Assembly (NCBI GenBank): GCA_963842525.1
Contig: CAWJGT010000001.1
Location: forward strand, 726,215 to 790,214
Length of the DNA: 64,000 nt
Origin: an uncultured Holophagales bacterium
GTDB taxonomy: Bacteria > Acidobacteriota > Thermoanaerobaculia > Multivoradales > UBA5704
Direction of reading: 5' to 3'
The stretch's first letter is position 1. Every line of letters starts with the position of its first letter. Positions 55,748-56,740 of the stretch are shown piece by piece. Position numbers and translations under genes: made by a program. The notes under the pieces are model-generated. The model saw only the letters and a list, made by a program, of their open reading frames with translations. It had not been told where the DNA came from and made no database searches.

Positions 55748-56740
55748 TCAGTGACTTGCGAGGTACTCCTGCCTGGTGTATCGATTGTAATAGCTTGCCC
55801 AGGTCTTTCCCATGGACGGATTTTCGACTTCGGAGGAAGGCCGGGGCACCCACACAGCAGTGATTTGATCGGGCTTGATCTCTTCCCAGACGGCGACTTC
55901 ATTCTGTTCGGCGTGTGGATTTCTATGCTTGGTCAAAATGGTGTAGGCGACGTTGGCGTCGACCCCCTGGTACCATTCGATCTCGATTTCAAAGGCGTAT
56001 TTGCCATAGCGTTCGTCCATGCCGGTGAGGTCCTTGGTAGTGGCAATCCAGTTGGATCCTTTGCCCTGATCGACCGTGATATGTGTTACGAGGTCTTCGT
56101 ACCCGCTTCGGGTCCATCCGGTCGCGAAGACTATCGATGGATCCCTGTCGGTCCGCCGGTAGACGGTGCCGCCAGGGAAGAGGTATCCCCAGTAGCGCTT
56201 GGGCATGCCCGACGCAAGGAGCGCGTAGGCGGATGGCGAGCTGCTGCCTGGATTGATGGAAATCGTGAGAGCTGCGCTCCCGGAAGAGGAAGAAGAGGAG
56301 GAAGAAGAAGAAGAAGAGGAGGAAGAAGAAGAAGAAGAGGAGGAAGAAGAAGAAGAAGAGGAGGAGGAGGCGCGCTGGATGACCGGCGGTTTCGGCCCGT
56401 AAGGGGTTAGAACGCGGCCCCGCGGCGGAAGAGGCGCCACGGGAGGCGCGGGCCTGGCAGTGGGCCGGACGGGTGCCATCCGTGCCTGTACGGCCTGAAG
56501 TGCCGCCACCACGTGGGCGGCAGGTTGGCGCTCGGCCGTCGTGCGCTTGGCTTGGACCGATTTGACCGGCGGTCTTGTTGCGACAAGTGCCGCCTGGACA
56601 TGGGCGGCCAAAGGCTTGGCCTGGACAGCGCCTACCGTTCTGATGAGGCCTGGTCGAGCCGGTGGAAACGGTGCGGGCATGGTGCGGACTCCGGCGGTGG
56701 CGGCAAGCGTATCACGCCTCCAGGCACCAAGGTGCCCCAC
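55748..56740 (-). CDS. ADP-ribosyltransferase-toxin-like protein: N-terminal Pro/Ala region with 'AAHVQAAL' motifs, a 33-Ser linker, and a C-terminal ART-like domain
   Basis: 'YRRTDRDPSIVFATGW' (Arg motif), 'NWIATTKDL' (STS-like), 'YAFEIEIEWY', 'HAEQNEVAVWEEI' (Q/ExE). The layout resembles cholera/pertussis-type ARTs. Confidence 0.55.
   Translation of the reverse strand: MGHLGAWRRDTLAATAGVRTMPAPFPPARPGLIRTVGAVQAKPLAAHVQAALVATRPPVKSVQAKRTTAERQPAAHVVAALQAVQARMAPVRPTARPAPPVAPLPPRGRVLTPYGPKPPVIQRASSSSSSSSSSSSSSSSSSSSSSSSSSSSSGSAALTISINPGSSSPSAYALLASGMPKRYWGYLFPGGTVYRRTDRDPSIVFATGWTRSGYEDLVTHITVDQGKGSNWIATTKDLTGMDERYGKYAFEIEIEWYQGVDANVAYTILTKHRNPHAEQNEVAVWEEIKPDQITAVWVPRPSSEVENPSMGKTWASYYNRYTRQEYLASH
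56283..56385. repeat. Perfect simple sequence repeat (gaagaagaagaagaggag)n that encodes the poly-Ser linker
   Basis: A ~100-nt purine-only tract with 18-nt periodicity. Confidence 0.9.

Follow-up and report, generated by a model that had tools for sequence, protein, structure and literature searches.

A divergent Scabin-related ADP-ribosyltransferase gene of an uncultured Holophagales bacterium with a leader shared among dispersed genes: a candidate orphan toxin cargo for contractile injection

Scabin, ScARP, and pierisin modify guanine in DNA or nucleotides, and Tre toxins modify essential bacterial proteins. Scabin, from Streptomyces scabies, is a Sec-secreted exotoxin, and TreX and TreTu (Xenorhabdus/Salmonella; Rhs/type VI secretion system) are ADP-ribosyltransferase (ART) cassettes carried on polymorphic toxin scaffolds. 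Cargo proteins of extracellular contractile injection systems (eCIS), which an AAA+ ATPase loads, begin with a disordered loading sequence specific to the system, may carry a DUF4157 after it, and end in a C-terminal domain that varies (bioRxiv 10.64898/2026.05.27.728243). DUF4157 is highly eCIS specific and lies N-terminal to toxins with long linkers, and the toxins that carry it often have no immunity genes (PMC8213781). Known ART toxins already include some with polymorphic or eCIS scaffolds, EAT1 being an example (PMC8213781). How eCIS cargo is recognized and loaded is an open question, and the published leaders are reported to be disordered and without a consensus. Here we describe a gene on the minus strand (55748..56680) of a 64,000-nt stretch of DNA (the window; contig CAWJGT010000001.1, positions 726,215 to 790,214) from an uncultured Holophagales bacterium (Acidobacteriota). 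Its product is predicted to work like an ART of the Scabin/pierisin kind and appears to be built like an eCIS toxin, while falling outside both groups when membership is judged strictly. We propose, with a probability of about 0.5, that it is a three-part effector and the orphan cargo toxin of an eCIS-type contractile injection system (CIS); the proposal rests on the CIS association of its ART family, on the three-part architecture, and on a hydrophobic-Q-R-small junction in front of the toxin domain.

The minus-strand open reading frame (ORF) at 55748..56740 starts with GTG and has 330 codons, and the residue numbers given below for the target protein are those of this ORF. To judge from the sequence, the translation start is probably the ATG at 56680, which is ORF residue 21. 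The public annotation of the gene (P0001) starts instead at an internal methionine, Met179 (56206), and describes a protein of 152 aa, omitting the leader, the Ser run, and a pre-domain segment that is conserved in homologues. We consider the annotated start to be too late because the residues before Met179 are conserved in all homologues; truncated in this way, the public annotation hides the leader. Read from residue 21, the gene encodes three parts, namely, a Pro/Ala-rich basic leader, a run of 29 Ser residues, and a C-terminal domain of ~177 aa, with the following features.

55748..56680, minus strand: coding sequence in the preferred reading, 310 aa, ATG at 56680 (MPAPFPP...), stop codon at 55748-55750
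56689..56692, minus strand: Shine-Dalgarno-like GGAG, 8 nt upstream of the ATG at 56680, read from the sequence
56369..56680, minus strand: leader, 104 aa, 41% Ala+Pro, net charge +14, without a hydrophobic segment
56588..56608, minus strand: leader motif 1, AAHVQAA, whose A-H-V columns are invariant in a five-sequence leader alignment
56501..56521, minus strand: leader motif 2, AAHVVAA, found by pattern match and in the five-sequence leader alignment
56369..56380, minus strand: junction I-Q-R-A at the end of the leader, with Q-R-A invariant in the five aligned leaders
56282..56368, minus strand: 29-Ser spacer, ORF residues 125-153, (TCC/TCT)n, GC 0.46
56207..56269, minus strand: pre-domain segment LTISINPGSSSPSAYALLASG, which aligns with ETISI.AGS.SISA.ALRATG of homologues
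55853..56164, minus strand: ART core, ORF residues 193-296, covered by the match to the Pfam Scabin-like family
56153..56161, minus strand: Y194-R195-R196, catalytic-Arg motif, with R195 aligned to Scabin R77
56036..56044, minus strand: A233-T234-T235, the S-T-S/T position, with the first Ser replaced by Ala in 7/7 close relatives
55898..55906, minus strand: Q279-N280-E281, Q-x-E catalytic motif, within the invariant string RNPHAEQNE

The C-terminal domain matched only ARTs by sequence, by profile, and by fold, in agreement with an earlier prediction, made from the letters alone, of an ART with an Arg/STS-like/Q-x-E triad; the ORF and the strings quoted in that original prediction (YRRTDRDPSIVFATGW, IATTKDL, EQNEVAVWEE, LAAHVQAAL, and AAHVVAALQAVQARMA) are all present. 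The doubt raised with it, that no ART fold might be detectable, was answered by Pfam, by a profile search of the Protein Data Bank (PDB), and by Foldseek, each of which pointed to ARTs. In Pfam, the Scabin-like family (PF22596) was matched at E = 6.9e-5 with the full ORF and at E = 1.9e-5 with the domain alone, nothing else competed, and 5/7 family members matched it. The NCBIfam equivalog for Streptomyces ADP-ribosyltransferase was matched at E = 2.4e-5, with a score that falls far short of the equivalog cut-off. A single-sequence phmmer search of PDB sequences returned Scabin only (E about 0.01). A profile of the seven closest members, run against PDB, matched Scabin (3.1e-5), TreX (7e-4), ScARP (9.5e-4), ArtA (1.4e-3), and pertussis S1 (~0.015) and no non-ART protein. 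An AlphaFold2 model built on a shallow family alignment (pLDDT 63, pTM 0.63) gave nine significant Foldseek matches in PDB (E <= 0.001), all nine of them ARTs, and the best 50 listed were all ARTs; Scabin led (E = 2.3e-4, TM 0.45-0.48), followed by ScARP, TreTu/TreX, pertussis S1, PltA, CARDS, LT/CT, and MTX.

The Scabin/ScARP/pierisin/MTX group (PF22596) is thus the best match to the target in sequence, profile, and fold. Both have one compact ART domain (about 170 aa), and their aromatic-Arg, x-T-T, and Q-x-E motifs fall at matching positions. Residue for residue, Y-R corresponds to Scabin Y76-R77, A-T-T to S117-T118-T119, and Q-N-E to Q158-V-E160. Y194, R196, A233, T234, and E278-Q279-N280-E281 are invariant in 7/7 close members; R195 is Val in P0007 (Y-V-R), so that a Tyr with an Arg at 195 or 196 is found in all seven. 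S-T-S is kept in more distant members of the ART family, whereas the target has A-T-T and all seven close members have Ala for the first Ser. On the sequence comparisons and the model, we regard it as very likely that the domain is an R-S-E-class ART, established as to fold and catalytic apparatus, and its predicted activity is that of a Scabin-type R-S-E/QxE mono-ART. The differences from Scabin are also clear, with an identity of only about 22%, a score under the PF22596 cut-off, Ala for the first Ser, and a non-Sec leader followed by a poly-Ser spacer in place of a Sec-secreted form. Moreover, where Scabin contacts DNA through W128 and W155, the target has Tyr and His in the alignment; these Trp residues are not conserved, and no substrate can be assigned to the target by sequence.

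The original prediction had called the domain cholera/pertussis-type. This holds for the broad clade, in that pertussis toxin S1, cholera toxin A1, and ArtA/PltA belong to the same R-S-E fold clade and give weak sequence and fold matches (Pertussis_S1 in Pfam, E = 0.21; fold similarity to PT-S1, LT, and ArtA), but the nearest relatives are single-domain toxins of the Scabin, ScARP, pierisin, and TreX type, and Enterotoxin_a gave no match in Pfam. If the target were the A subunit of an AB5 exotoxin, B-subunit genes would be expected; none lie near it, its neighbors being a permease gene and holA, and the protein has neither a signal peptide nor an A2 segment. The gene neighborhood effectively refutes this explanation, to which, with Scabin, TreX, and ScARP as the best sequence and profile matches, we give next to no chance; a stray CIS cargo, favored over a cholera- or pertussis-like exotoxin, is the most likely reading.

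Going beyond the original prediction, we found that homologues tie the ART family to contractile injection systems. The family is small: an exhaustive HMMER search of 1.84 billion cluster representatives returned 34 clusters at E <= 1e-3, only 11 of them at E <= 1e-30; a search of the species-representative genome set with the ART alignment found no relatives, and IMG/VR scans for both the ART and the leader returned nothing. The architectures in the family include short proteins with diverse low-complexity N termini and three clusters (P0011, P0012, and P0017) in which eCIS_core/DUF4157 (PF13699) is fused upstream of the ART with 56-94 bits, against a cut-off of 22. One of these, P0017, combines eCIS_core, a GNAT acetyltransferase, and the ART within 445 aa. 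The homologue P0007 (43% identity; locus L001) is encoded by a three-gene operon, comprising genes for a 664-aa protein, a YbjN-like protein, and the ART, that diverges from an eCIS cluster with eCIS_core, AAA ATPase, Pvc16_N, sheath, and gp19 tube genes. The gene for P0005 (62% identity; locus L003) directly follows a Tail_P2_I baseplate gene and a DUF6519 gene and is itself followed by another leader-bearing gene, and the gene for P0004 adjoins one with an EndoU toxin domain. N-terminal motifs are common to cargo-like genes at these loci (GN.A in three L001 genes, AISVFP in two adjacent L003 genes), which parallels the sharing of a leader by two genes of the window; the L001 and L003 loci show the published eCIS cargo pattern. 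A hydrophobic-Q-R-small junction precedes the ART in most close relatives, including DUF4157-fused ones, and the form [VIL]-Q-R-x occurs also where a homologue has a different leader or DUF4157; in the P0007/P0013 branch, the corresponding residues are V-A-R.

Two side observations concern these homologues. The YbjN-family gene of L001 (9540..10004, plus strand) overlaps the start of P0007 by 4 nt, and the YbjN fold resembles that of type III secretion chaperones; its product could be a chaperone or an immunity factor. No YbjN counterpart lies beside the target gene in the window. In addition, short hydrophobic-Q-[RA]-[KRAQ] motifs (VQAK, AQAK, IQRA, LQRK, and VQRK) recur in the N-terminal or linker regions of the target, protein 2 (a second leader-bearing protein of the window, described below), P0002-P0006, P0011, P0012, P0017, and the L003 neighbors, CIS-linked proteins among them.

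The leader of the target carries a V-Q-A-[KAR] motif four times (leader residues 19, 28, 42, and 64). Its probable disorder was judged by composition only, and the same leader is found on protein 2. Neither a Sec/Tat signal nor a membrane segment was found in the target, whose most hydrophobic stretch of 19 residues has a Kyte-Doolittle mean of 1.1, as expected from the predicted lack of a signal peptide; a Pfam scan of the leader gave 0 matches, and PAAR, Rhs, MIX, and LXG-type domains were not found. The spacer that follows was correctly predicted to be repeat encoded, since its Ser codons form a 21-nt unit present four times (TRF, 56283..56365, 98% matches), but its length had been given as 33 Ser, and we counted 29. 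From its sequence, the run looks like a recently expanded slippage repeat, always in frame; in homologues, this position is taken by Ser/Thr/Ala-rich spacers that are shorter or of another kind. The GC content of the leader-coding part, 0.70, equals that of the genome, and that of the ART part is 0.57 (window, about 0.68); the lower value is in keeping with a mobile toxin cassette. Scans for promoters and terminators near the target gene found none. An antisense ORF of 219 aa (55751..56410, plus strand), considered as a candidate immunity gene, was rejected as an artefact of the GAA/GGA repeat, with a poly-Arg/Gly translation.

The original prediction had also proposed that the N-terminal module recurs in the ORF at 17625..18332 and that the two proteins represent a polymorphic-toxin-like family with a common delivery module. 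The second gene and its motifs are as follows.

17625..18326, minus strand: gene for protein 2, 233 aa, ATG at 18326, starts with M-P, with the ORF extending to 18332
18249-18269, minus strand: protein 2 motif AAHVQAA
18117-18137, minus strand: protein 2 motif APHVQSA
18045-18056, minus strand: protein 2 junction IQRA

The ATG of protein 2 is preceded by AGGAGG at a distance of 7 nt, and the IQRA junction is followed by an Ala/Ser/acidic spacer and then the C-terminal domain. In the six-frame translation of the window (128,000 residues), the pattern A[AP]HV[QV][AS]A occurs four times, twice in the target and twice in protein 2, and nowhere else. In contrast with this exclusive motif, whole-protein comparisons were marginal: BLASTP of the target against protein 2 gave E = 0.033, over the N terminus only, and a Smith-Waterman comparison of whole leaders gave z = 2.85, a score reached by 58/5,000 shuffles. 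We therefore built a hidden Markov model (HMM) of the leader that excluded the target and the other ART carrier, P0006 (from protein 2, P0010, P0009, and the locus L004) and compared its scores with those of composition-preserving shuffles. The target leader beat 2,999/3,000 shuffles and the P0006 leader 3,000/3,000, and in reciprocal tests the scores were reached by 2-8/3,000. The worry that the N-terminal similarity is compositional only was thus met directly, and the window-exclusive motif together with the tests against shuffles indicates that the resemblance is a real short-motif module, beyond Ala/Pro/Gln richness.

Six carriers of the leader are known from our searches (the target, protein 2, P0006, P0009, P0010, and L004), with two A-[AP]-H-V motifs followed, except in L004, by [VIL]-Q-R-A. 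In the five-sequence alignment, which comprises the target, protein 2, P0010, P0009, and P0006, both A-H-V motifs and Q-R-A are invariant; in L004, which lies outside the alignment, the junction reads I-Q-L-A. The leader precedes four unrelated C-terminal domains (one, the ART, in the target and P0006, one in protein 2 and P0009, one in P0010, and one in L004), which bears out the idea of a family with a common module, and P0006 has the same order as the target, that is, AAHV leader, Ser-rich spacer, ART. The further idea that the differing C termini all consume NAD did not hold up: for the C-terminal domain of protein 2, searches of Pfam, NCBIfam, and PADLOC came back empty, as did a fold search (AlphaFold pLDDT 57; no Foldseek match better than E = 1.8), and the SIR2 protein encoded downstream of it is the product of a separate gene without a leader, with no SIR2 gene downstream of the homologue P0009.

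For a scan of loci, the five-sequence alignment was too poorly conserved and was dropped; an alignment of two leader sequences found a Thermoanaerobaculia metagenome-assembled genome (MAG; L004) and, from that same organism, two loci in metagenomes (L008 and L009), with the following feature.

L004 10001..10894 (the same in L008 and L009): leader-bearing ORF of the Thermoanaerobaculia MAG, DASQPA010000424.1

This ORF continues into a Thr/Ser/Ala-rich spacer of ~100 aa, with runs of 8-9 Thr, and a small C-terminal domain. It has no ATG, GTG, or TTG between the upstream stop codon and the first AAHV, and an unusual start or an imperfect assembly must therefore be assumed. A leader-profile search of a 5.8-billion-protein set returned nothing at E <= 0.01, the input sequences included, because the leader is too short and too low in information, and the signal of the module was likewise too faint to be distinguished when the whole window was scanned with the HMM. 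Two other resemblances were rejected. A suspected likeness of the N termini of P0012 and P0011 ("QARMA" and "GHVVQ") to the AAHV leader was not supported, as 311 and 369 of 2,000 shuffles scored equally well with the HMM, and a derivation of A-A-H-V-Q from a degenerate HExxH of DUF4157 ("AHVVQQ") had no statistical support and no PF13699 match at E <= 1.

Formally, the resemblance between the leaders could be compositional chance at high GC, and the true product could be the 152-aa ART from Met179. The marginal pairwise scores and the empty search of the large database would fit this explanation, and long spurious ORFs are common at 70% GC. However, the residues before Met179 (LTISINPGS..S.YAL.ASG) are conserved in all homologues, a ribosome-binding site precedes M21, P0006 keeps the order of leader, spacer, and ART, the motif is exclusive to two genes of the window, and the HMM cross-tests were reached by only 0-8/3,000 shuffles. 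We consider chance resemblance highly improbable.

We hypothesize that the leader (~104 residues, basic, and probably disordered) would be a lineage-specific loading sequence for a phage-tail-like CIS. In known eCIS cargo, disordered loading sequences at the N terminus are threaded into the tube by an AAA+ ATPase, and the leader would play this part. The 29-Ser spacer would act as a flexible linker, and the ART, once delivered, would transfer ADP-ribose from NAD+ to some macromolecule of the recipient. Protein 2, from a dispersed gene, would bring a different C-terminal domain behind the same leader. We infer that the leader serves as an address for a CIS, that such a system is encoded in the host genome, and that the substrate lies in the recipient. 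The comparison with known eCIS toxins (EATs), AlgoCIS Cgo1/Cgo2, and PVC Pdp1/Pnf is favorable in several respects: like these, the target has a probably disordered N terminus, a long linker, a variable toxin domain, and no immunity gene; paralogous cargo proteins of one genome share N-terminal sequence; and homologues of the target ART adjoin CIS genes or are fused to eCIS_core. It differs from them in the lack of DUF4157 and of a CIS operon within -55/+8 kb and in a leader with a repeated motif, where published leaders are reported to have no consensus.

Several findings weigh against the proposal of an orphan CIS cargo. Neither tblastn with eCIS proteins of L001 as queries nor Pfam on ~40 genes found a CIS structural gene in the 64-kb window, the target and its neighbors have no PF13699 (DUF4157/eCIS_core) match, and no CIS gene lies near any of the six AAHV-leader genes in the DNA examined, which extended 10 kb to either side at L004 and L008 and was short at L006 and L007; within 10 kb of L004, L008, and L009 there were none. 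The leaders of CIS-linked ART homologues, compared with the AAHV leader by HMM, did not score above shuffles, so that it is the ART domain and the architecture, and not the leader itself, that carry the CIS link. The distant relative P0025 carries the ART at the C terminus of an Rhs protein, which means that the domain is tied to no single route of delivery. As for the ART itself, the target scored 23.2 bits (full ORF) and 25.0 bits (domain) against a PF22596 gathering cut-off of 27, which the more distant members P0013 (28.5 bits) and P0014 (30.0) exceed, and it is a divergent Scabin-like relative and, by the curated test, not a member; it has A-T-T in place of S-T-S, and confidence in the structural model was only moderate (mean pLDDT 63), with poorly modelled loops at domain residues 59-84 and 108-128, where the A-T-T region and the ARTT loop, which determine the choice of substrate, are found.

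Some of these points would also be accounted for if the same ART toxin, with its shared trafficking module, used another export or anchoring route (a secretion system, vesicles, or surface attachment), in which case it would be a polymorphic toxin of Acidobacteriota delivered in some other way. The six leader genes without nearby CIS genes and the unlikeness of the AAHV leader to the leaders of CIS-linked homologues are what such a route would lead one to expect, and the Rhs-borne cassette of P0025 shows that the ART moves between delivery systems. Set against this, the leader lacks a Sec/Tat signal as well as any Pfam match, and domains of the PAAR, Rhs, MIX, or LXG type are absent; the nearest homologues with informative context are all tied to CIS or eCIS_core; and a basic, probably disordered N terminus, a long low-complexity spacer, and a toxin domain without an immunity gene are what has been described for eCIS cargo (PMC8213781; 10.64898/2026.05.27.728243). 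We regard another route as unlikely, though it is the main rival to CIS delivery. TreX and TreTu, with which the target shares ~13-20% identity and to which P0025 corresponds in its Rhs fusion, differ from it in that the target has no Rhs/PAAR scaffold, no immunity gene, and no thioredoxin-type partner.

Within the proposal of CIS delivery, a more specific and rather doubtful suggestion is that the leader is an undescribed, lineage-specific CIS addressing tag for dispersed genes acting in trans and that the junction is a site of processing by DUF4157. The leader has so far been seen in the organism of the window and in a Thermoanaerobaculia MAG; scattered toxin genes may have their products loaded into one particle, and the eCIS_core (DUF4157) metallopeptidase, in cis or in trans, may free the toxin from the leader at the junction.

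The target gene stands alone among housekeeping genes. It is convergent with a gene for an ADOP-type MacB/FtsX permease, 51 nt from stop to the permease gene, and lies downstream of holA, dksA, rlmH, and def; the intergenic gaps beside it measure 51 and 114 nt, and no adjacent immunity-sized ORF was found at the locus, as had been predicted of an obvious immunity gene. Protein 2 has other company, lying 60 nt upstream of a tandem SIR2_2 gene and near a TIR gene and a ParA-like/nSTAND1/TPR-S gene, and ARTs such as DarT act in defense. The target might accordingly be an intracellular NAD-dependent effector of defense or abortive infection, with the N-terminal module that it shares with protein 2 serving as a regulatory or sensor-docking segment. 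We think this improbable: neither protein had a PADLOC match, the target is without a partner, antitoxin, or sensor, the adjacency of protein 2 and SIR2 is not kept in P0009, the A[AP]HV motif is found nowhere in the SIR2, TIR, and STAND gene region of the window, and the ART homologues associate with CIS, not with defense islands.

In the library searched, no paper was found that names Scabin together with contractile injection systems. To judge from the alignments, what is new here is a divergent Scabin-related ART branch with A-T-T for S-T-S and, probably in Acidobacteriota, where the A-[AP]-H-V leader has been seen so far, an alignable, motif-bearing leader common to dispersed genes. If the leader motif directs loading, it would provide a defined signal to mutate and would allow orphan cargo to be found by scanning whole genomes of Acidobacteriota, a major phylum of soils about whose weapons of interaction little is known.

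The remaining observations concern other genes of the window. The gene after that for protein 2 encodes a 550-aa tandem SIR2_2 protein (15912..18326, minus strand, for the pair) that is ThsA-like (PADLOC, 6.8e-12), and the two genes are found together again on a Logan contig from the organism of the window (L005). At 21028..25880 (plus strand), the gene for a 422-aa TIR_2 protein overlaps by 4 nt that for a 1,195-aa protein with ParA-like P-loop, nSTAND1, and TPR-S parts (PADLOC PDC-M28B, 3e-25); from their sequences, the two look like a STAND-type conflict or defense pair. At 10879..14539 (minus strand), a 554-aa protein with a metallo-beta-lactamase-fold N terminus like the effector domains of LmuA/Avs (PADLOC, 9e-14) adjoins a 658-aa protein without a family match, and these may be another defense pair. 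A HEPN and minimal-nucleotidyltransferase pair at 36855..37999 (minus strand), together with a YoeB-type toxin gene, represents ordinary toxin-antitoxin modules. At 957..9082 (minus strand) lie two paralogues of ~1,200 aa each, with at least 9 CarboxypepD_reg repeats and signal-peptide-like N termini. Finally, the GC content falls to 0.555 at 50001..52000 (compared with about 0.68); this trough, which may be foreign DNA, holds a 222-aa ORF (50213..50881) with a GC3 of 0.55 and no Pfam or PADLOC match.

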